Part shown: positions 50,059-64,000 of the stretch, one piece after another
Numbering within the stretch: position 1 is the stretch's first letter
Layout of the letters: each line of letters opens with the position of its first letter
DNA from: Bdellovibrionota bacterium FG-1
GTDB lineage: Bacteria; Bdellovibrionota; UBA1018
DNA: 64,000 bases
NCBI GenBank assembly: GCA_051382295.1
Contig: JBBCAW010000008.1
Coordinates: 32,001 to 96,000 of the forward strand
Reading direction: 5' to 3'
Program-made: the position numbers and the translations under genes
Notes under the pieces: model-generated
The model's database searches: none
What the model was told of the DNA's origin: nothing
Seen by the model: only the letters and a program-made list of their open reading frames with translations

Positions 50059-51459
50059 CTATTTGCCTCGCAGGTCTATGCCGTAACGTTGCGCCTTTCG
50101 ATACAAAGTGGCGCGATCAATTCCCAATACCTCGGAGGCCTTAGATTTATTGAAACCCACTTCCTGCAAAATCCGCATAATGTGAGCCTTTTCCATATCC
50201 TCTAAAGAGGTCGCCCCTTGCGAACTCCCTCCTGCCCCATTTTCACTCAAAGGTATACCACTCGTACCGTAGCGAACAATCTCGGGTGAAAAATCCTCTG
50301 GAAAAAGCACAGAGGTATTGCTCATCGCTACAGCCCGTTCAATGGAATGCTCGAGTTCGCGAATATTGCCCGGCCACGGGTAAACCTCCAAAAGCCGAAA
50401 CGCCTCGTCTGAAACATGAGAAACACTTTTGCCATTCTTTTCGGCAAAACGTGCCAAAAAATGCCCTACTAAATCCTGAAGATCTTCCATTCTTTCGCGA
50501 AGAGGCGGTAGTTCGATCTGAATCACCTTGAGACGATAGTAAAGATCTTCTCTAAATTTTCCGGTCCGCACCATGAGCTCAAGGTCTCGATGGGTCGCCG
50601 CAATCACGCGCACATCGGCCTTTTTGGTTTCACTGGACCCTACCAATTTAAATTCACTTTCCTGAAGAACCCGAAGCAGCTTAATCTGAAGCCCTAACGA
50701 AATATCACCAATCTCATCCAAAAAAAGCGTGCCGCCGTTAGCCTCTTCAAAAAGGCCCCGCTTATCTGAAACCGCCCCTGTAAACGAACCCTTAACATGT
50801 CCAAAGAGTTCGCTCTCAAGTAGATTTTCTGCCAGCGCACCACAATTGACCGCGACAAACTTACGTCCCCGACGTGGACCATTGTCATGAATCGCGCGGG
50901 CCACCAATTCCTTTCCCGTCCCGCTTTCACCCATCACCAAAACCGTACTCGAAGACATCGCTGCACGCGCCAAAGTTTTGTAAACTTCAACAATCCGGGG
51001 AGAACTCCCAATAAGCCCCTTGGCCGCCACATCAAACTTGCCACTCACACTTGCATTTCCACGGTGCTTCCCGTGAGTGGACTCCCAATGTTTAGCCGCG
51101 CGGGCCACCACACTTTTGAGATGATCAATCTTAAAGGGTTTACTGATATAGTCGAAGGCCCCCTCCTGAATAGCCTCAATCGCCCCCTCCATACTACCAA
51201 AGCCAGTCATCAAGATAACCGCAGTAGCAGAATCTCGCCGCTTAGCCTCACGAAGCACGGCCATGCCATCCAGCTCAACCATTCGGATATCAGAAACAAT
51301 AATCGGAAAACCGCTCTGCCGAAGAACTCGCACCGCTTCTTCGCCGCTCGCGGCAAGTTGTACGGAGTAGCCTTCCCGCTCCAGCACTTCCTTAAGAAGT
51401 TTGCGAGTGACTTCATCATCATCCACGACAAGCATTGTTTGTATTAAAATCGAATTCAT
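50059..51459 (-). CDS. Sigma54-dependent response regulator (NtrC/ZraR/AtoC family)
   Basis: Receiver domain, [29 protein letters not shown], Fis-type HTH. Confidence 0.96.
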
Positions 51460-51463
51460 GGTG

Positions 51464-52876
51464 TCAAACCTGATAAGGAATTTTGAGAACTACCCGCGTC
51501 CATCCGCCTTCTTTTGAATCAATTTCCAAAAGTCCTCCGTATTTGTGAGCCAGCTGTTGGCAAATCGTCAGACCTAAACCAGTTCCTTCGCCTGGACCTT
51601 TAGTCGTAAAAAACGGCTTGAAAATGTTTTTCAAATCAGTCTTTTTGATCCCCTCACCCGTATCATAAACCGTCACACGCGCCCACTCTTTGCCCGCTTC
51701 CGACTCAGTTTGGGTCGAAATTTCCAACATCAAACGACCTCGCTCACGCGCCTGAACCTTAGAACGCAAGCTATCCAGCGAATTATTGACTAAATTGAGC
51801 AAAATCTGCTCCAAATCCAAGGGAACCGCCCGAACTGGGCCCATTTTGCGATCGAAATCTCGCCTCAACTCAACCCCTAAAGCCTCCAAACGGGGGCGTG
51901 CAATTCCAAGCGTCTTCTCGACCAATTGATTTAAATCGACCAGCTGTTTTTGAGAGACGGGTTTAGCCGTGCTCTGCAAAAAGCCTTTAACAATCTTCTC
52001 AATCTTGGCCACTTGCCCGTTAATAATTTCCAGGCGTTCACCACGTCCGATTTCTTCCTGAAGAAGTTGGAGATGCCCGCCAATCGCGTTCAGGGGAGTG
52101 CCAATCTCATGGGCAAAGCTGGCCGTGAGCTGGCCCATAACCGCGAGCTTTTCGGTATTCATAATTTGGCGCTGGGCATCATGAAGTTGCTCGGTCAATT
52201 GAATGTTTTGCGATTCAGCCCGCCGAAGGAGCCGATCATTCGCGATTGTTTTTCGAAGAAAGTAACTCAGCACCAAAATCAGACACACGACACTCATTGC
52301 TGCGGCCGTGGCCGTTGTTTTCCAAAGCGTCCCTATGATGTTCTCGACCACTTTGGCTGAAACAATGAGGTGAACCGTCCCCAGCAGGCGCCGGGGGCCT
52401 CGTGGATCACGCGAACGATGTTCAATAGGAACACTAATTTCCCAGTTATTCGCGCCATTTTCGTCTTCTTTGTACTCACTCGTCACCGCCTCGACCAAAC
52501 TAAACGCAGGCTGGGAAGCGGTCGGATCTTCTTCCACATTAGAGGCGACAACCTTAACGATGCCAGTCACCGGATCTTTCACCACAACGTCCACCCGAAC
52601 AATATTCGGCTGCGAATAAAGGATTTCCTGCATCCTCGACTCAATGGCGGGCGTTGGATTAGGCATCTGCAATAGACGCCCACTCACGATTTCAGCTGCG
52701 AGGGTTTTGCCGGAGGTGACTCCAATTTGGCGGATTTCATCTTCCAAAATAGGTTGGGTCAACTTGTTCTGAGCTACCGTCACAATAAGAAACGTGGGCA
52801 GAATCACTGCGACCAAAACAAGACTGACCTTGGCCTGAAGATCCAAACGCCGTTTGAGATTATGGAGCAATTGCAC
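51464..52876 (-). CDS. Membrane sensor histidine kinase (NtrB/ZraS-like)
   Basis: Two TM segments, AHEIGTPL, NLVNNS, DTGEGI, FFTTK, GTGLGL. Confidence 0.95.
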   Translation of the reverse strand: MQLLHNLKRRLDLQAKVSLVLVAVILPTFLIVTVAQNKLTQPILEDEIRQIGVTSGKTLAAEIVSGRLLQMPNPTPAIESRMQEILYSQPNIVRVDVVVKDPVTGIVKVVASNVEEDPTASQPAFSLVEAVTSEYKEDENGANNWEISVPIEHRSRDPRGPRRLLGTVHLIVSAKVVENIIGTLWKTTATAAAMSVVCLILVLSYFLRKTIANDRLLRRAESQNIQLTEQLHDAQRQIMNTEKLAVMGQLTASFAHEIGTPLNAIGGHLQLLQEEIGRGERLEIINGQVAKIEKIVKGFLQSTAKPVSQKQLVDLNQLVEKTLGIARPRLEALGVELRRDFDRKMGPVRAVPLDLEQILLNLVNNSLDSLRSKVQARERGRLMLEISTQTESEAGKEWARVTVYDTGEGIKKTDLKNIFKPFFTTKGPGEGTGLGLTICQQLAHKYGGLLEIDSKEGGWTRVVLKIPYQV

Positions 52877-52971: not shown

Positions 52972-53214
52972 TTACTGACCTGCAGGAGCAGCTGGAGCGG
53001 CGACAGGGGCTGCAGGAGCAGCTGGCTCAGCAGCGGCTTTAGCTTTCTTAACTTTTTTGCTGGTCTTCTTCTTGGCTTTTTTTGCCTTCTGAACAACCAC
53101 GGTCTTTGGGGCTGCTGCGACTGGAGCAGCGGTCGTGGTGGTGGTGGTGGTTTCAGCAGCAAAAGCGGACATAGCGAACAAAGCAGCTACGATAACAACG
53201 AGGGTCCTTTTCAT
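52972..53214 (-). CDS. Small secreted Ala/Lys/Pro/Thr-rich low-complexity protein (Asr-like)
   Basis: AAGGAG RBS, signal peptide ending SAFA, T7 run, KKAKKAKKK core, own sigma54 promoter and terminator. Confidence 0.8.
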   Translation of the reverse strand: MKRTLVVIVAALFAMSAFAAETTTTTTTAAPVAAAPKTVVVQKAKKAKKKTSKKVKKAKAAAEPAAPAAPVAAPAAPAGQ

Positions 53215-53255
53215 ACAGATCTCCTTGAATGGTTTGGCGAACACCTCACCACTAG

Positions 53256-54520: not shown

Positions 54521-56392
54521 TTAGGTTTCGCCCTGTACCGCTTCCTGATAGCGATAAAGCCGCGCGTAAAGTCCCCCGGCTTGCAATAACTCGTCATGAC
54601 TTCCCTTCTCTTGAAGGGTTCCTTTATGAAGCACTAAAATCAAATCCGCCGTTTTGACCGTCGCCAAGCGGTGCGCGATCAAAATGGATGTGCGCCCTCG
54701 ACTCTCCTCATCAAGCGATATCTGAAGGCTCTCTTCAGTTTGCGAGTCCATATTGGCCGTGGCCTCATCCAAAATCCAAATCCGAGGGTTGGCCGCCAAC
54801 GCCCTCGAAAAAGCAAGCACCTGCTTTTCGCCCATTGAAAGATTCGTACCCCGTTCTTGAACCAACCCTGTACTGGTATTCCACCATTTTTCATAGCCCA
54901 GACGCGCCAGAGCTTTGCGCGCAGCCATCACACCGGCCCCGCTATCGTCTCGCCAAAAAGTAATATTGTCCTTAAGAGTACCTGAAAAGACAAAAGCATC
55001 CTGCTGAATCATCCCAATCGAAGCACGCAGACGACGTTTATCATAATCACGCAAATCCTTACCATCCAACAAAATGCGCCCACGCTGGGGTTCATAAAAC
55101 CGCATCAAAAGACTGATGAGCGTCGTTTTTCCAGCACCGGTATGACCAACCACGCCCACCCGTACCCCTGGAAGGATCTCCAAATTAAAGTCTTTCAATA
55201 CCCATCGTAATTCACTGTGGGCCTCACCACGGGTCTCGCCGCGTTTGTCATCATAGGCAAACCAAACCCCCTCAAAAATGATATGACCCCGCAAATTTTC
55301 ATAAGGCAGTGTCTCTTCTGAATTTTCGGGCGGAGTTCCAGGGTCTATGGGATTTGACCACGCCACTTCGGTGGGCCAATCTAGGATCGCAAAAATCCGT
55401 TCAACGGAAATCATACCGGACAAGAATACATTCCATTTATCGGCAATTTCCCGAACCGGCTGAAAAAGCGAAATAGAATAGGAAAAAAATGCGACCAACA
55501 CCCCCACTTTAATGACCCCGTTCGAAACACTTTGAGCACCAAAAAGCATGAGTAAAGCGACAGAGATCCCCGAAGCAATCGTAATAGCGGGCTGAAAAAA
55601 AGCATAGACACGAATCGTAGAAATCAATGCGTCCGTGTACCACTGATTAATCCGGCGAAACCGCTCGAGATGGAGATTTTGCCGATTAAACAAATGCACT
55701 ACTCTCATCCCGCTTAAATTTTCAGCCAAAAATGCATTCAGCGCGGACAACTTACTGCGAGATTCCCGGTACGACCTTCGCAATAACTGCGTGAAGTAAA
55801 CTCCAAAAATGACGAGAAACGGGAAAACGCTTGCAGCAATCATTCCCAACTTGACATCCAAAACCACCAGCCAAATCAGAATTCCGACCACCATCAGTGC
55901 GTTCGAAAGCATCGATACAAAACCGGCAGAAAACATTTCACCGATACTCCCGATATCGTTCGTCACGCGGGTCAATAGACGCCCAGCAGGATATTTGTCA
56001 TAAAGCCCCAGAGGAAGCCTCATAAGCGTAGAAAAAAGTTGAACACGCAATTCCTGCGTCACCCTCTGCCCCAATACCTCAAAAACAAAAGTTTGACCGA
56101 TCATCGCCAGGATCCGCACCAAAACCATCAAGAAAAACAGACCTGAAAGCCTCATCAGAAGCTCCCCCCGCTTGGGCACAATCGCCTCATCGATCGCGTA
56201 ACCAAAGATTCGAGGTTCAAGCAACGTGGCAAAGGTGCCTAGAAACATAAGAACCACACCAATCCCCAGCAACAAGCGGTGCCGACCAATCACTCGGGCC
56301 AACCGCCAAAAACTATTCGACTTCAGATGCGGTTGATCGCTCAAGTCATGAACTTCGTCCTGCTCAATAAATTCGGATGGGTTTGAACTCAC
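54521..56392 (-). CDS. ABC exporter, TMD-NBD half (MdlB-like)
   Basis: GRLLTRVTND, GHTGAGKT, LSMGE, LDEAT, IAHRL. Confidence 0.93.
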   Translation of the reverse strand: MSSNPSEFIEQDEVHDLSDQPHLKSNSFWRLARVIGRHRLLLGIGVVLMFLGTFATLLEPRIFGYAIDEAIVPKRGELLMRLSGLFFLMVLVRILAMIGQTFVFEVLGQRVTQELRVQLFSTLMRLPLGLYDKYPAGRLLTRVTNDIGSIGEMFSAGFVSMLSNALMVVGILIWLVVLDVKLGMIAASVFPFLVIFGVYFTQLLRRSYRESRSKLSALNAFLAENLSGMRVVHLFNRQNLHLERFRRINQWYTDALISTIRVYAFFQPAITIASGISVALLMLFGAQSVSNGVIKVGVLVAFFSYSISLFQPVREIADKWNVFLSGMISVERIFAILDWPTEVAWSNPIDPGTPPENSEETLPYENLRGHIIFEGVWFAYDDKRGETRGEAHSELRWVLKDFNLEILPGVRVGVVGHTGAGKTTLISLLMRFYEPQRGRILLDGKDLRDYDKRRLRASIGMIQQDAFVFSGTLKDNITFWRDDSGAGVMAARKALARLGYEKWWNTSTGLVQERGTNLSMGEKQVLAFSRALAANPRIWILDEATANMDSQTEESLQISLDEESRGRTSILIAHRLATVKTADLILVLHKGTLQEKGSHDELLQAGGLYARLYRYQEAVQGET

Positions 56393-58260
56393 GTGACCGA
56401 CTCCTCGAGTGACACGTCAAGCCTCTCCACATAACTCTCGAGATCTTCTTGCAAGCGCTGCTGTTCGTAGAATTGACGATAAAGGCCCCGCCGATCCATT
56501 GACAGCTCAGCATGGGTACCCACTTGCCGAATTTTCCCGTCCGCCAAAACCACAATTCGATCAGCGTCCTTGATGGTCGAAATTCGATGGGCCGCAATGA
56601 TTTCTGTATTCCGCCCGGACCGGGAGCGAAGGCCCTGCAAAATCTGCTCTTCTGTTTGTACGTCCACCGACGAAAGCGCATCATCCATAACCAAAATCGA
56701 AGGATGTTTTGCAATCGCACGCGCAATGGTCAAACGCTGTTTTTGCCCTCCCGACAGATTAACCCCACGTTCTCCCAGACGAGTTTGATAGGATTGCGAA
56801 AGCCCCAAAACTTCGTCATGCACTCCGGCTAGCCTCGCGGCGTCTTCGATCGACCTGGATTGTAAGCCCGGTGATTTCGCCCAGTTCAAAAGTCCAAAGG
56901 CGACATTTTCAGTAACGGTCTCACTAAAGAGAAAGACATCTTGACTCACAAAACCGACCTGCCGGCGTAACTCCTCCAAAGGCCAATCGTTTATATCGAC
57001 TCCATCAATCCATAGCATTCCCCGCTCCACTGGGTACATCCGTGGAAGAAGGGATAAAAGGGCGGACTTCCCCGCCCCGACGGCACCGACAAAGGCGACT
57101 CGTTCCCCCGCCTCGATGGTCAACGAAATCCCGTTTAAAACCGCACGATCAGTCCCGGGAAAACAAAAAACAAGATTTCGAAACTCGAATCTTCCTAGAG
57201 TACGCCCCTCCACCAGCGCCGGCAAAAGGGGCTGCGAAGACTCCGGAACATCGGTATGGATCGCTTGAACTTCTTTCAAACGATTCGAGCTCGAAACCGC
57301 GCGCTGATAATACCCCACGGACATCCCTAAAGCGGCCATCGGCCACACAATCTTTTGGATATAGCGCTGAAAAGCCACAAAAGTGCCTAAAGTAATAACA
57401 GCCCTTGCACCCGGCGTAATCATCCAACGTCCACCCACAAAGAGCAAAAGCACCATGCCAACGCTCATCACAAAATCGAGCGTGGGACCGAACGAAGTTT
57501 GCACCTTCGCCAAACTCAAATTGAGTTTGACAAATTCGTCACCTTTTCTCTTAAAGCGCGCGACCTGCGCTTCTTCACGCGAAAAGCCCTTCAAAACCCG
57601 AACACCGCTTAGACTTTCCTGGGCCATGGCCGAAAGCTCGGCAAAACACTTTTGAACTTTTTCAAACCGAGTATGGACCTCGCGCTCGTTGCGGTACACC
57701 AGCCAAGGTACGAGCGGAAGCGTGACAAAAGTTAAAAGGGTGAGCTGGGGCGAAAGCCAATACATTGCAACGGGTACTGTCAGTAAATAAAACAAAGAAT
57801 CAGCAAAGACGAGGATCCCCGCTCCGAGTTCCATCCTGACGGCTTCGATGTCATTGGTCGCAAGCGACATGAGCTCACCAATGGGTCTGCGATCAAAAAA
57901 ACTGGTTGAAAGCCCAAACAAATGCTCGGTAAAGCTTTGTCTCATGTCCTGACCGGCGAACATGCTGGCGCGAATCAGGTACATGCGCCATCCGTACCGA
58001 CAGACTCCCTGGATCAAAGCCACCGCCAAATAAAGAGCTGCGATCCGACGCAACTCTCCAAAATTTGCCGTTCCCGCAGTACTCAGATCCACTGCCTGCT
58101 TCAGAAATAAAGGGGGCAAGATCTCAAGACCATCGAGAACCACGAGCGTACCCAGCCCCAGGCAGACATAGGTCCGATACTTCCAAAGATAATGTCGAAT
58201 GAGTGAGCTATTCTCGAGAAAACGACCTATGAACGAATTTGGCGAAGATCCCCGACGCAT
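56389..58260 (-). CDS. ABC exporter, TMD-NBD half (MdlA-like)
   Basis: GELMSLATNDI, GAVGAGKS, LSGGQKQR, MDDALSSVD, AHRIS. Confidence 0.93.
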   Translation of the reverse strand: MRRGSSPNSFIGRFLENSSLIRHYLWKYRTYVCLGLGTLVVLDGLEILPPLFLKQAVDLSTAGTANFGELRRIAALYLAVALIQGVCRYGWRMYLIRASMFAGQDMRQSFTEHLFGLSTSFFDRRPIGELMSLATNDIEAVRMELGAGILVFADSLFYLLTVPVAMYWLSPQLTLLTFVTLPLVPWLVYRNEREVHTRFEKVQKCFAELSAMAQESLSGVRVLKGFSREEAQVARFKRKGDEFVKLNLSLAKVQTSFGPTLDFVMSVGMVLLLFVGGRWMITPGARAVITLGTFVAFQRYIQKIVWPMAALGMSVGYYQRAVSSSNRLKEVQAIHTDVPESSQPLLPALVEGRTLGRFEFRNLVFCFPGTDRAVLNGISLTIEAGERVAFVGAVGAGKSALLSLLPRMYPVERGMLWIDGVDINDWPLEELRRQVGFVSQDVFLFSETVTENVAFGLLNWAKSPGLQSRSIEDAARLAGVHDEVLGLSQSYQTRLGERGVNLSGGQKQRLTIARAIAKHPSILVMDDALSSVDVQTEEQILQGLRSRSGRNTEIIAAHRISTIKDADRIVVLADGKIRQVGTHAELSMDRRGLYRQFYEQQRLQEDLESYVERLDVSLEESVT

Positions 58261-59227: not shown

Positions 59228-61360
59228 TCACCATGTGTGACTGTCCGGAAACCAAGGAGGATCCTTGGAGACGCAGCCCTTGAGATAGGTCATTTGTTTG
59301 TAATTCTGAGGGGGCAGACCAGTGCAAAGCCATATCTCAGTAAAGCCGATATTGACCATTTTTATGGCGATTTCCTCACCCTTCACACCACCCCCCAACA
59401 TACTGTCCACATAGATGGGGGTATTTTTATGGAGTCGTGGGGCAAAAGCAAAAAATTCATCGGGTGCGGTGAAGTGCCGCACATTTTTGCCATCTTTTTT
59501 AGCCGCGTACTTCCAGGTCATATGAACCAATGAATCATCGTCGATCAATACATAATCTGGTCGCTCAAGCGGCTCCGCAAAGGAAATTGGAACAAAGCCA
59601 GCCAACCCTTTGGGGATCAGACGAACTCTCAGCCTTTCACAACTTTGTCTAATATGGGGCTCTTCAAAACGACTGGTCACTAAGATGCTTTGGGGTCCAA
59701 TTTTCAGGCTCTCAATCAAATCAAGACCGGTTTGTTTGTGACCGAGAAGTTCATAATCTGCGAGATAAACAGCTGAACGTGCAGACGGGGACGAGTTCAC
59801 CCACTGGATCAACTCATCGGGCGTCGAAAAGTGAAGTACCTCAATGCCCTTTTCCTGCACTCGGAGCGAATCAAAACGCCCCTGCCAAATTCCATGAATA
59901 CTCGAGTCATCATCCAGCACGACTACTGGAGTGTTCAGCTCCAGCTTGAGTTCGGAAACAAACCATGAAGGAGCCCGGGCCTGAGGAAGCGAAATCAGGA
60001 CGGTGGTGCCCTTTCCAACCTCGGATTCAAGAGTGAGTGTGCCACCCCAGGATTCAACAGACGTTCGCGCATGAAAAAGGCCAAGCCCTGACCCACCTTG
60101 CTTGCCGTGGGTTTCGCCTCGCTGGCCGAGCTTGGCAAGGACCTCTGGTGGAATCCCTTTGCCGTTATCGGTGATTCTAATCTCGACCTGCCCTTCATTG
60201 CCCACGAGCGAGAGGATAACGACTCCTTTGTCGCCGAGGACCTCAACTGCGTTGTTCACAAGATTGGAAAGTGCCCGCTTGAATTCGGTGGGTTGAATCC
60301 TGGCAAAAAGACCGTAGGACGAAGCATCCAATCGCCCGTCGATTTCGACACCTATTTTTGAGCGAAACTGCATCCGTTTTTCGCTGATCAGCGGATCAAT
60401 GAGACTAGAAAGGAGCTGAACAGAAGACGCCTCGTTCGTTACTACCGCGGAGCTTTCAGCATTCGCAGTTACCGAAGTAGCTCGATGCTCCCGATTTTTT
60501 TCGATAAGATTGTTCGCGATGTCCTTAATGCGATTAATCGCCGTCCTCACAAGGATACGGTCGTCTTCAGGAAGGACTTGAAGGCCACCCAAAACGTTGT
60601 CGAGAGCCGCAAGGGGCGAACGGATGTCGTGGGCAACCTGGGCTGCTGTCCTTGCCAAAGCCTCCTGGAGAGTTGCCGCAATTAACTGCGCTTGAAATTC
60701 ATCAATCTTGGATGCCATTACTCCGATACTCGAAAGCAGCATCTGAACCTCTTTTACATCCGATCCTCGAATTTCATTAACTTGACTGGTGATGGTATCT
60801 ATCTTACCGGTGGCCAGCCCCTCAGAAAGCTTCGTAATGGGTCTGGAGATCGATATTCCGATCAGTCGAGCAAGCAAAAATTGAATCAAGGCAAAGAAAA
60901 AAATTGCGGCCACGAGAAGGCCAATTGATTTCGACTTAGTTTCTGAAGAAATTGCTGTAGAATATCGAATAACAACTTGCGCTGCGATATCCTTTTGTTT
61001 TTCGTCAAAAAACAGAGGAGTTTTAATAACAATTCCGTCAATGACTTCAGACCCAAAATCACAAATAGGTTGCCCTTTTGAATCCGTGATCCTCATGGAA
61101 AGAACTGGCTGATTACTAAAAAACGTCTTACATTTTCTGTAAACTTCGGCATTTGCCCCAATCAATATATCTTGCGAAATAGTTTCAGAAAACAGCAGTT
61201 GGGAAGATTTAAGATTATCCTCAAAAGATTTGTTAATCGTCTTAAAAATGACATGGGCAGAAACCAACGAAAATGCAATGAGAACCAACAAGCCAATCAA
61301 AAGGCTACGTAAAAAAATAAGCCGGCCAAGGGACTTTGACTCAATGCCCTTAAATATCAC
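59228..61360 (-). CDS. Hybrid sensor histidine kinase with two C-terminal receiver-like domains
   Basis: Two TM segments, QVAHDIRSPL H-box, NLVNNA, DNGKGI, GSGLGL, two LDDD/IDDD receiver starts. GTG start overlaps the upstream TGA. Confidence 0.9.
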   Translation of the reverse strand: MIFKGIESKSLGRLIFLRSLLIGLLVLIAFSLVSAHVIFKTINKSFEDNLKSSQLLFSETISQDILIGANAEVYRKCKTFFSNQPVLSMRITDSKGQPICDFGSEVIDGIVIKTPLFFDEKQKDIAAQVVIRYSTAISSETKSKSIGLLVAAIFFFALIQFLLARLIGISISRPITKLSEGLATGKIDTITSQVNEIRGSDVKEVQMLLSSIGVMASKIDEFQAQLIAATLQEALARTAAQVAHDIRSPLAALDNVLGGLQVLPEDDRILVRTAINRIKDIANNLIEKNREHRATSVTANAESSAVVTNEASSVQLLSSLIDPLISEKRMQFRSKIGVEIDGRLDASSYGLFARIQPTEFKRALSNLVNNAVEVLGDKGVVILSLVGNEGQVEIRITDNGKGIPPEVLAKLGQRGETHGKQGGSGLGLFHARTSVESWGGTLTLESEVGKGTTVLISLPQARAPSWFVSELKLELNTPVVVLDDDSSIHGIWQGRFDSLRVQEKGIEVLHFSTPDELIQWVNSSPSARSAVYLADYELLGHKQTGLDLIESLKIGPQSILVTSRFEEPHIRQSCERLRVRLIPKGLAGFVPISFAEPLERPDYVLIDDDSLVHMTWKYAAKKDGKNVRHFTAPDEFFAFAPRLHKNTPIYVDSMLGGGVKGEEIAIKMVNIGFTEIWLCTGLPPQNYKQMTYLKGCVSKDPPWFPDSHTW

Positions 61361-62916
61361 TTTCGATCCTCCACCTGCCAAAAGATGTTTTTTAACTCAG
61401 CTTCGTAACGATAACTGGTATCTGGGACGTGAATACCATTAGTAAATAAAATTGGCAGATTAACTTGAAACAACGGAATCACATATTTTAAGCGTTCGAA
61501 CTCCAAAAGTGCGTCTGCATAGGCTTTCAATCGTATTTTAGCTTCTGAAATAAATCGCGCCTTTTCAATTTTTTCAAAAAGCTTCCTACTAGGTTCAAAA
61601 CCCTTCTTGAACCCGATTCCATCATGGAGCAGGTCTAGAAATCCATCCGGATCCGGAAAATTCCCCATATAAGGAATGGACAACAGATCAAAATCAAAAT
61701 GATCTAGGGAGGCTTTCAGGTCAGCCCCAGCTTTTACCTCAATATCAGCATTAATCCCAATCAGAGAAAAAGCCCCCGAAAACGCCTTCAAAAGAGGCCC
61801 ACTGAAATAAGTTTGGGGTAAAACAAACTTGAGGTGAACATTAAGTGCGCGAGCACCCCACTTCCTTTTAAAGGCCTCCACGGGCATCTTATCTAGAGTT
61901 CGCTCATAGTAGTAACTCGGCAATATCCCCTTCGGCATAAAATAGGGTGATACCTTCTGAAAGGGTGAAATAAGCTCTGCCTTTTCAGTGATCGAATAAA
62001 TCACTGAAGCTAGGTCACGGCGAAAATCATCATCCTTCAAAAGCTGATTCCTAGGGTTCAAATAAAGATGACTAAAAGCAAGGCTGTTCGTTCGAAGTAC
62101 GGTCACACTTGACGGAACCTTGGACACATCAAGTTCTCCAAAAGGTACTCCAATTGCGAGATCCAGCGCCCCCGCCGTGAAAGCATTAAGCACTTCGTCG
62201 ATGCCTGCCTTGCGCTGAATACAGAATGCAGCTGTTTTTGGCGGTACCCCTATGTACCCATCAAACCGGTGGAGAAGCCACGTTTTTGAATCGCTTAGAT
62301 ACTCAGCTTTCATGGGACCAGAACCATTTGCTTTTTTATGAATATCAAAGCCTTTTGGAAAAACTGAAAATCCTGGCATCGCCAATACGGATAAAAATGG
62401 CGAATAAGGCTTAACCAAATTAAAAGAGAGAGAATGCTTGCCTATGATCTTCACGCCAGCTGGAATTTCTCCATTCTTTACCCGGTCAGTGCCAACCAAT
62501 ATGCCATTAAGATAACCTTTTACCACGGACTTGGATGAAGGCCAAAAGTGTTTTCCGATACTAAAGGCTACATCATCACTCTCAACGACTTTGCCATTAT
62601 GAAAATGAGCATCTGATCGCAATTCCATCGAATAAACTCGCCCTGTACTATCGACTGACCATTTCTTGGCAAGCGATGCCACGATTTGGCCATTTTCATT
62701 CACTCTCGTTAGAGTGTCAAAAACTGCCTGAATCAAGAGAAATTGCTGATAATTCCATGCCTCGGTTGGATCTAGGTACTCCGGCACATTGACTAAACTA
62801 AGGTTGAGCATTTGCTTAGATCTCCTTGCAACCACAGAGCTACAATTTTCAGAAAAAGCTAAAGATACAGAACAACAATTGATCAAAATAAGTAGACCAT
62901 AAAAATATAACTTCAC
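61357..62916 (-). CDS. Family 5 (OppA/DppA-like) extracytoplasmic peptide-binding protein
   Basis: Signal peptide, LDP, FDTL, LAKKWSV, LRSDAHFHNG..V..DDV.FS, NGSGP, IPLF. GTG start overlaps the upstream TGA. Confidence 0.88.
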   Translation of the reverse strand: MKLYFYGLLILINCCSVSLAFSENCSSVVARRSKQMLNLSLVNVPEYLDPTEAWNYQQFLLIQAVFDTLTRVNENGQIVASLAKKWSVDSTGRVYSMELRSDAHFHNGKVVESDDVAFSIGKHFWPSSKSVVKGYLNGILVGTDRVKNGEIPAGVKIIGKHSLSFNLVKPYSPFLSVLAMPGFSVFPKGFDIHKKANGSGPMKAEYLSDSKTWLLHRFDGYIGVPPKTAAFCIQRKAGIDEVLNAFTAGALDLAIGVPFGELDVSKVPSSVTVLRTNSLAFSHLYLNPRNQLLKDDDFRRDLASVIYSITEKAELISPFQKVSPYFMPKGILPSYYYERTLDKMPVEAFKRKWGARALNVHLKFVLPQTYFSGPLLKAFSGAFSLIGINADIEVKAGADLKASLDHFDFDLLSIPYMGNFPDPDGFLDLLHDGIGFKKGFEPSRKLFEKIEKARFISEAKIRLKAYADALLEFERLKYVIPLFQVNLPILFTNGIHVPDTSYRYEAELKNIFWQVEDRK

Positions 62917-64000
62917 CTTTTGCACAAAAAGGTCCTTTCTTGACCATTTCTCAATTGACAGCAAATCTCTTCAGGCGTGACTGAAATCCTTAGCTCTCCG
63001 ATCGCCTCCGAACCTTGTTTAAGATCAGCCGGCAAAAAACATCGCGCTAGTTGCATTAGACCAGCCTCCCGAAGAGAACGCCGATTTTTCCAACCAAAAT
63101 CGCAACCCAGATTTTCATGTATTCGCATGATTTCCAACCGAGGAAACAAATACGACTCCAACTCTACTTCGGAAGCAGAAGATTCTAAATCAACCAAAGC
63201 AGAAGAAAAGTATCTCAACTTATTCGATCCCATCGTCCTAAAAAAATAAGGAATATCTTGACGATTTAACTGCTGCTGTTCACTCGGAAGCACTGTAGGG
63301 TGCCATTGCTTTTGCTCGCCTAGAAGTGCCAAGCGATAACTACTTGTATCGCGCAATATAACTCGAATTGGCCATTTCCAAATCTCAGAAACGTTAGTAA
63401 TGAATTTCGTGACTGCCTTCTCTTCTTGATTCAACACATCAATTACCTGAAGAAAGCCCACTTTAGATACCCGCAACGGACTTTAAGGGATTTAATGAAT
63501 TATTCAAAAAGGGTAAAAGCGAAGACAGACCACTTTGAACCGTAGCATTATGCTTCGGATGCAGAAGAAAAGTCTGGGACGGAAGCTGGTAGTCATCAAA
63601 AATACACTCAATATCTAGAGGCATGCAAATCGGCCCACCACTTTTGGAAGTGCCAAGTGCCATATTTTGCGCGTGAATATCTCCAATGCCGAACCATGAG
63701 ATCAAAGCGATAACCGAGCCTACCTGCTGACAAACTAGAGATGATAGTTCAAATCGCCCCGGGTCCCAATGAATTCGTTCCACTCTGCCTTGGGCCAATC
63801 CCGGATCGGATGAAAAAAACTCCACATCCTCAAACAAATCAAACGGACATCCCGTGGAGTTCCGCGAAAAAACATCAGATAGAAAAATACGTAAAGGACT
63901 TTCCTTAGATAAAAACAGCCACTCCCAACCAATCGTTCTCGGCTTTTCGAGAGTTCCATCGTCCAATTCGCGTACACGACGACCAAAATTATGAGGATCG
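62913..64000 (-). pseudogene. LanM-type dehydratase/kinase domain (DUF4135) without LanC cyclase; frameshifted at about 63465; 5' end beyond window
   Basis: The frame from the window edge reads DPHNFGRRV...EKPR...GDIHAQN...LDIECIF. The second ORF has GF, RVILRDTSSY and E..QL..QDIPYFF. Confidence 0.8.

Follow-up and report, generated by a model that had tools for sequence, protein, structure and literature searches.

A cyclase-less LanM dehydratase coupled to an orphan binding protein and a membrane kinase: a recurring cassette of Bdellovibrio-like bacteria that looks like a modified-peptide make-and-sense module

Closest described systems

Stand-alone LanM dehydratase domains are known from the pathways of polytheonamide (PoyF) and phospeptin (EmbM), as described in passages of PMC9505594 and PMC9259500, and from that of hominicin (HomMD; passage in PMC12749797). 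We describe here another, encoded by Bdellovibrionota bacterium FG-1 at the right-hand edge of a 64,000-nt stretch of DNA (‘the window’: contig JBBCAW010000008.1, positions 32,001 to 96,000), in a cassette with an orphan family-5 solute-binding protein and a membrane histidine kinase. PoyF and HomMD likewise comprise the dehydratase domain alone and, as we predict here, give linear products; they serve, however, as tailoring enzymes among several in the making of toxins or bacteriocins, whereas the cassette enzyme has no other maturase beside it and comes coupled with a binding protein and a kinase. The phospeptin pair EmbA/EmbM, of Candidatus Eudoremicrobium, shares with the cassette a sole, cyclase-less LanM-domain maturase, a Cys-free precursor, and a two-component pair on the scaffold. 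But EmbM lacks the elimination residues that the cassette enzyme keeps; EmbA has a Nif11 leader and a Gly-Gly site where the cassette precursor has a short acidic leader and no Gly-Gly; and the family-5 binding protein and the major facilitator superfamily (MFS) transporter belong to the cassette, not to the phospeptin locus.

The lanthipeptide synthetases CylM (PDB 5DZT) and LicM2 (6ST5) have the same fold, match by profile, and share all ten catalytic residues. They differ in that the cassette enzyme is small (~350–380 amino acids, aa), lacks a LanC cyclase, acts on a precursor without Cys, and has no C39 transporter beside it. With neither cyclase nor Cys, no lanthionine can form.

On the receptor side, periplasmic binding proteins gate membrane kinases in CBP–ChiS, LuxP–LuxQ, TorT–TorS and ChvE–VirA, and CBP, too, is an SBP_bac_5 protein. 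The ligands of these pairs are sugars, autoinducer-2 or trimethylamine N-oxide. In the passages of PMC12704726 and PMC8050422 that treat the gating of ChiS by CBP, none of the ligands is a peptide that ribosomes make from a gene of the same operon. As in the CBP–ChiS type, linkage of binding protein and kinase is conserved in our cassette (26 of 38 loci), and in FG-1 the two genes adjoin with a GTGA overlap.

Peptide pheromones are textbook material for Gram-positive bacteria—agr, com and nisin NisRK are examples, and PrgZ-bound cCF10 controls conjugation—and Gram-negative bacteria are held to use small molecules instead. The opening of the abstract of PMC5388746 begins to say the same of signals in the two groups. 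The cassette follows the logic of the Gram-positive circuits, with precursor, maturase, exporter, receptor kinase, variable signal and a link to conjugation, but it does so in a Gram-negative host, with a periplasmic co-receptor, a predicted linear dehydro-peptide, a sigma-54 regulator and interchangeable synthases.

The cassette is real, conserved and recurring in Bdellovibrio-like bacteria, and it looks like an undescribed route by which Gram-negative cells make and sense a modified-peptide signal. We read it, with a probability of about 60%, as a make-and-sense pheromone module for a linear dehydro-peptide that is exported and then sensed by the binding protein and a hybrid kinase. It is apparently unpublished, and would amount to peptide-pheromone signalling built of known parts: literature searches, in which coverage of subscription papers was thin, found no description of it, and the passages of PMC12715929 that link lanthipeptide clusters to mobile DNA make no mention of Bdellovibrio.

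The FG-1 locus

In our coordinates the window is G000:C8:32001-96000, G000 being the FG-1 genome (4.44 Mb, 158 contigs) and C a contig; positions above 64000 continue the window's numbering into sequence of the same contig past its right edge. L-numbers label loci, L001 being the FG-1 locus, and P-numbers proteins. The features are:

63463..64000 (frame 64056-63463), minus strand: LanM dehydratase domain, 5' piece, 197 aa, ending at a premature stop
G000:C8:96056, minus strand: start codon of the 5' piece, 56 nt beyond the window edge
62913..63476, minus strand: LanM dehydratase domain, 3' piece, in the other frame, 187 aa, with no LanC domain after it
61357..62916, minus strand: orphan solute-binding protein of family 5, 519 aa, its N-terminal segment hydrophobic and signal-peptide-like
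59228..61360, minus strand: membrane histidine kinase, putatively hybrid, 710 aa (transmembrane segment TM1, periplasmic domain, TM2, HisKA, HATPase, two receiver-like domains)
64078-64155 (G000:C8:96078-96155), minus strand: candidate precursor, 25 aa, IDLDxxE leader plus tail
64334-65521 (G000:C8:96334-97521), plus strand: divergent MFS transporter, 395 aa
60700..64000 and on to about G000:C8:98000, no strand: low-GC stretch, GC 0.42
L001:9606-10255: BrnT/CopG-like toxin–antitoxin pair, in the outermost part of the low-GC island

An earlier, sequence-only reading of this DNA had seen three chained minus-strand genes in a stretch of low GC. The trio stands, and GTGA overlaps do chain the genes at 62913-62916 and 61357-61360, but the first gene is not the single open reading frame (ORF) it was taken for: a frameshift near 63463 stops a 197-aa frame, and a 187-aa frame continues. 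GC is indeed low (0.42 over 60700-64000, against 0.509 ± 0.021 for the backbone at 1-58000, where the lowest 1-kb bin is 0.462), and it stays below 0.49 to ~66000, past the window edge. It does not extend to 59228, as had been supposed; low GC ends within the kinase gene, and 59228-60700 stands at 0.507. Candidates for the precursor and exporter predicted to lie past the right edge are there, as the Ser/Thr-rich ORF at 64078-64155 and the MFS gene at 64334-65521.

Recurrence and layouts

The enzyme profile finds a match in 32 of the 401 host-phylum genomes searched, and the 41 match rows merge into 38 loci (L103, with the same genes and a longer flank, replaces G010). Of the 38, 28 have a family-5 binding protein within 5.5 kb (the match at L215 is weak) and 26 have a kinase with it, which bears out the co-occurrence expected earlier of related genomes; an MFS gene lies within 5.5 kb in 18. 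The profiles for these three proteins derive from members of the cassette and were spot-checked with Pfam, and the leader motif discussed below comes from the same loci, so these counts are partly circular; the 38 loci, moreover, include kin, which are not independent. Named records with the cassette are mostly titled Bdellovibrionota, with one Elusimicrobia and one Polynucleobacter title.

Two layouts recur. In layout A, that of FG-1, the precursor, enzyme, binding protein and kinase follow one another, sometimes with a divergent MFS gene; in layout B the order is sigma-54 regulator, MFS, binding protein, kinase, precursor, enzyme. When 61 enzyme rows were placed in a FastTree phylogeny, 14 of the 15 layout-B enzymes formed one clade (support 93). 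Conjugation genes (VirB2, VirB4, VirB6 or coupling protein) flank 13 of the 38 loci, and at L020 and L220 a single 16–18-bp palindrome precedes the cassette and the downstream operon alike.

From a set of 184 loci, 80 were kept. Thirteen of these have the binding protein; the other 67 are titled Myxococcota, Deltaproteobacteria or Acidobacteriota, and among these Myxococcota-type enzymes none has it (0/67, and 0/29 where flanks are full; L025-L101). Nor did an ATG-only scan find a consistent upstream peptide at those Myxococcota-type loci with at least 250 nt upstream. The 12 of the 67 rows that entered the tree form one clade (support 100). Since this clade has neither the binding protein nor a consistent upstream peptide, peptide and receptor travel together; and since its enzymes occur without the receptor, the enzyme alone does not imply the circuit. 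Myxococcota-type enzymes are ~400 aa long, and one, P0012, has a Cys-rich C-terminal tail.

Across the cassettes, pairwise distances among enzyme, binding protein and kinase sensor correlate at 0.52–0.63 (18 loci) and 0.67–0.83 (11 loci), and distances against the kinase core correlate less, at 0.29–0.47 and 0.55–0.65 for the same numbers of loci. Kin among the loci not being independent, we take this as a hint that enzyme, binding protein and sensor co-vary.

A predicted minimal dehydratase

The motifs from which the enzyme had been recognized—DxH, KPR, DxHxxN, DxE and R-x5-T—are all present across the two pieces, and, as had been noted, no LanC match follows. Read through the break with an X, the 380-aa sequence matches PF13575 (DUF4135) at 39.5 bits against a cut-off of 29, as the earlier assignment required. 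The closest intact homologue, P0007, scores 33.2 bits, and the separate pieces score 15.8 and 23.5 bits, both below the cut-off. The equivalents of CylM D252, H254, K274, D347, H349, N352, D364 and E366 lie in the 5' piece, and those of R506 and T512 (at 63365 and 63347) in the 3' piece, after the break, so that the read-through keeps all ten catalytic residues. According to passages of PMC4550811, K274, D347, H349, N352 and D364 of CylM serve in phosphorylation; its elimination residues are D252, H254, R506 and T512. Of the 48 non-Myxococcota rows of our alignment, 42, 47, 47 and 45 retain the four elimination positions, as do 67 of 67 Myxococcota-type rows.

A PDB profile search with 16 intact homologues matches CylM and LicM2 only, and the top folds for the AlphaFold model of P0007 (51% identical; predicted local distance difference test 90) are CylM (TM-score 0.47) and LicM2 (0.46). 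Pfam and NCBIfam scans find no LanC cyclase domain, homologues ending soon after the dehydratase domain, and the cut-off of TIGR03897 is not reached (29 bits against 304). Judged by these residues and this fold, the enzyme would be a Ser/Thr dehydratase. Its family has 388 representatives at E ≤1e-30, the best 150 of which are stand-alone proteins of 260–407 aa; a survey of DUF4135 proteins applied, according to a passage of PMC10676384, a 500-residue minimum that would exclude them. At ~350 aa, and with a short leader, this would be a very small Ser/Thr dehydratase, useful for peptide engineering.

Longer forms of 552–587 aa occur at L235:7005-8663, L237:1353-3116 and L238:6104-7867. They carry a C-terminal extension that falls in no known class and have a family-2 glycosyltransferase gene in the vicinity, and the L237 and L238 precursors are rich in Cys and Thr. 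That the extension might be a cyclase, and so explain the Cys, we considered and rejected; it has no Pfam match in the two forms scanned. At L019:1341-3566 the enzyme lies directly 3' of a frameshifted radical SAM gene, and there is no receptor.

Candidate precursor, exporter and peptidase

The candidate precursor gene in FG-1 is a 25-codon ORF, 21 bases upstream of the enzyme gene, with a GGAGG ribosome site. It specifies an acidic leader containing IDLDxxE, followed by 12 tail residues of which four are Thr and none is Cys, and has neither a Pfam match nor a Gly-Gly site. Scanned genome-wide, FG-1 has two short ORFs with the leader motif, both at LanM cassettes. Such an ORF lies directly upstream in 28 of the 38 loci against 13 of 3823 control windows, with the reservations that the motif comes from the same loci and that the match at L231 is an ORF other than the likely precursor. 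Among 36 tails (from the 38 loci and 10 extra) all contain Ser/Thr and four contain Cys. Counting what is left of the leader, most are 9–16 residues long; their sequences vary greatly, and most are acidic or neutral. The MFS gene of FG-1 matches MFS_1 at E 8e-7, below the cut-off.

At L063, L216 and L217 an S9 prolyl oligopeptidase lies within the cassette, and since the L216 and L217 precursors contain Pro, it is a candidate processing enzyme there. Upstream of the FG-1 precursor (L001:8212-8230), a TGAC-N7-GTCA repeat is followed by GCTATTCA. As a conserved promoter element we discarded it, the repeat occurring in two of 25 loci only, L001 and L103; a strict sigma-54 pattern was found before the precursor in none of the 25, and a sigma-70 scan gave no sites.

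The putative receptor pair

The binding protein was said to be of family 5, without an adjoining ABC permease or ATPase, and linked by gene overlap to a membrane kinase, and so it is. It matches SBP_bac_5 at 107 bits (cut-off 32.4), reaches neither the OppA nor the NikA equivalog cut-off, and has no Opp-type permease or ATPase beside it, either at the locus or among recurring neighbours, though it may serve a transporter encoded elsewhere. PrgZ is among the matches of its profile.

The kinase matches HATPase_c at 81.6 bits. A HisKA match, predicted earlier, is present and includes H244, but falls below the cut-off. Between TM1 and TM2 is a periplasmic domain of ~100 aa with two invariant Cys. 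Pfam finds no Response_reg domain in the kinase tail; the ‘hybrid’ label depends on invariant columns there (D483, D484, D535, T562 and K584) and on a structural model with two alpha/beta domains, in which the second fold match is full-length ShkA.

As a protein the kinase is mosaic, its sensor being of cassette type and its core of resident type. Among FG-1 proteins and the loci searched, residues 1–230 match only the LanM-cassette kinases of other genomes. The core, in contrast, is 72–75% identical to FG-1 paralogues on C147, C10 and C62, and at most 62% identical to cassette kinases elsewhere. At about nucleotide 630 of the gene GC rises from 0.37–0.44 to 0.47–0.55. In a tree of cores it groups with the three paralogues (86/80), and an approximately unbiased test rejects a single clade of cassette cores (p 0.001), the group having been named after the first tree was seen. 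FG-1 has 15 matches to a kinase of this type, and the resident paralogues of the core sit beside YcaO, radical-SAM or methyltransferase genes.

The pairing of receptor proteins is itself common in this genome. Ten of its 16 family-5 binding proteins adjoin a kinase, and their other neighbours vary: four YcaO genes, three of which score over the cut-off, a B12 radical SAM gene accompanied by one for a dipeptidase, a methyltransferase, a hydrolase. The same pair beside varied candidate synthases indicates that the receptor architecture is reused. Compact YcaO genes adjoin orphan family-5 binding proteins and kinases on C33, C54, C120 and C21 (L244-L247); in the L248-L250 set the receptor pair accompanies a B12 radical SAM enzyme and dipeptidase on C10, a double methyltransferase and an MFS–binding protein fusion on C62, and a hydrolase and ICMT-like gene on C19. 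A like fusion, in one 882-aa ORF, occurs at L241:4284-6932. At C28:36049-42117, C153:159-3214 and C140:5529-11049, related kinases with small-enzyme neighbours have no family-5 binding protein, and those on C28 and C140 come with regulators and adjoin conjugation genes.

We think it possible, though here we are on tentative ground and would put the chances somewhat short of even, that modified-peptide pheromone modules are interchangeable units in Bdellovibrionota and in the conjugative elements of the phylum, each a synthase (minimal LanM dehydratase, YcaO, radical SAM or methyltransferase) with its own family-5 binding protein and sensor on a shared hybrid-kinase core; that the LanM version makes a linear dehydro-peptide controlling conjugation or a host phosphorelay; and that hosts such as FG-1 lose synthesis, keep the receptors and eavesdrop.

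Two probably damaged copies in FG-1

Because the R-x5-T motif lies in the second piece of the FG-1 enzyme gene, it is missing from the 197-aa product. Each of the 16 homologues found with the read-through runs unbroken across the break point, and the break is outside any long homopolymer. The truncated protein is recorded identically in NCBI and Logan, which argues against an assembler slip, although the two records may derive from the same reads. No near-identical intact allele is present among the homologues found, the best being 51% identical. Split enzyme genes occur also in L083, L241 and L242. Programmed frameshifting we rejected, as none of the 16 aligned homologues is split at the break point. 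The sequence-only reading had this locus making a modified peptide; with its enzyme gene frameshifted it probably makes none, and with the binding protein and kinase intact it is most likely a mute listener—a copy that probably can listen, but not speak. Being broken, it is unsuited to enzymology and is, rather, a test case for a receptor kept after loss of its signal.

There is a second cassette in this genome, and it, too, seems to be damaged:

G000:C119:2350-8601 and G000:C24:1-1231 (L252, L021): regulator, MFS, binding protein, kinase, precursor, enzyme

Contig C119 ends with the regulator, MFS, binding protein, kinase and the start of a precursor that runs into an insertion-sequence end; on C24 the element's other end comes first, followed by a short tail rich in Gly and Ser and by an enzyme, intact, that belongs to the layout-B clade. 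An insertion sequence has probably split the precursor gene. The sequence at both flanks is TTA, but C2 and C72 share that flank, so the join rests on gene content. If it is right, both LanM cassettes of FG-1 have lost signal production and kept their receptors. Among 46 loci the split genes are four enzymes, one binding protein and no kinase, with two of the splits falling after the catalytic motifs: suggestive only of preferential loss of synthesis genes. Conjugation genes come after the enzyme on C24.

How the cassette might work, and what else it might be

Gene content, linkage, catalytic residues, fold, precursor family and breaks carry the pheromone reading, and the steps we infer from them—dehydration, cleavage, export, ligand binding, contact between binding protein and kinase, the genes regulated, and the quorum-like role that the sequence-only reading proposed—might run as follows. 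In intact relatives, the minimal LanM dehydratase (~350 aa) would bind the IDLDxxE leader, phosphorylate Ser/Thr of the short, Cys-free tail, and eliminate the phosphate to leave a linear peptide bearing dehydroalanine or dehydrobutyrine. A peptidase would remove the leader and the MFS transporter export the product; the periplasmic family-5 binding protein would capture it and switch the membrane hybrid kinase, by analogy with CBP and ChiS. Where the cassette includes a sigma-54 regulator, this probably drives the cassette and the adjacent conjugation genes. The FG-1 copy would listen without speaking, connected to the kinase network that belongs to the host itself. Candidate signal gene, maturase, exporter and receptor do occur together in one cassette, albeit in FG-1 with the maturase broken and no peptidase.

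A number of observations weigh on the other side. Ten of the 38 loci have no binding protein (four of these are cut short by contig ends, and three are the longer enzyme forms, in a different gene context), and 10 of the 28 that have one show no MFS gene within 5.5 kb. No leader peptidase is conserved, the S9 peptidase occurring in three of 49 mapped loci. The FG-1 locus has no conjugation marker within the 20 kb examined and no response regulator in the cassette, and the shared palindrome, no more than a hint of autoinduction, was present in two of the 12 regulator-bearing loci tested, the other 10 giving no match. Among the best solved relatives of the binding-protein profile, peptide binders stand alongside proteins that bind nickel, heme or opines, so sequence does not fix the ligand class. 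The counts are partly circular, as we said, and EmbM, in a passage of PMC9259500, is a LanM domain that goes no further than phosphorylation, contrary to what had been predicted of it.

This last case suggests a variant of the same circuit in which the mature signal is a phosphopeptide like phospeptin, or carries further chemistry. EmbM, cyclase-less and beside a two-component pair, does give a phosphorylated product, and our enzymes are far shorter than the CylM dehydration domain, which they match at a TM-score of only 0.47; but the elimination residues that EmbM lacks are nearly invariant here, and we consider this outcome unlikely. Scarcely better placed is the idea that the peptide is an antimicrobial or other effector, with the MFS protein for export or immunity and the receptor pair for autoregulation, as in lantibiotic clusters. 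Stand-alone LanM dehydratases such as HomMD do act in bioactive ribosomally made peptides, and the cassette occupies a low-GC island adjoining a toxin–antitoxin pair. The tails, however, are mostly short, acidic or neutral, and highly variable; tailoring enzymes, a C39 transporter or an immunity gene do not recur among annotated neighbour clusters; and receptor genes are linked more consistently than the transporter.

The receptor pair might instead be a general sensor of some outside ligand—prey peptides, or a metal complex—that regulates RiPP (ribosomally made, post-translationally modified peptide) genes or simply travels with them. Kinase-linked family-5 binding proteins with varied neighbours are, after all, the majority in FG-1, where the receptor is intact beside a broken enzyme. 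Most of those neighbours are candidate enzymes for modifying small molecules or peptides, though (the YcaO, B12 radical SAM and methyltransferase genes), the sensor resembles only LanM-cassette kinases among the sequences searched, and enzyme, binding protein and sensor seem to co-vary, which makes this, to our minds, an improbable account. We would give similarly long odds to the frameshift's being an assembly error, or recoded, and the FG-1 copy a complete, working circuit, whatever that circuit does. The copy shows no other sign of decay—ten catalytic residues, precursor and ribosome site are all intact—and the two database records may share their reads; on the other hand, those records agree on the 197-aa product, the best intact homologue is only 51% identical, the break is not in a long homopolymer, homologues stay in one frame there, and enzyme genes are split in three other loci. 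If the pheromone circuit is true, this compact cassette, with its dozens of natural precursor–receptor pairs, would allow peptide signalling in Bdellovibrionota to be tested directly, together with the way in which conjugative elements of the phylum time their transfer.

Neighbouring genes

Two sets of genes to the left of the cassette, two ABC exporters (54521-58260) and a sigma-54 regulator with a kinase (50059-52876), were considered as parts of it and rejected: both have backbone GC, and the exporters do not recur beside homologues. The toxin–antitoxin pair does not recur beside related loci. Just outside the island is a 452-aa ORF (L001:10383-11741) without a Pfam or NCBIfam match, and at 52972-53244 of the window is a 90-aa ORF rich in Ala, Lys and Thr, with a signal-peptide-like start.

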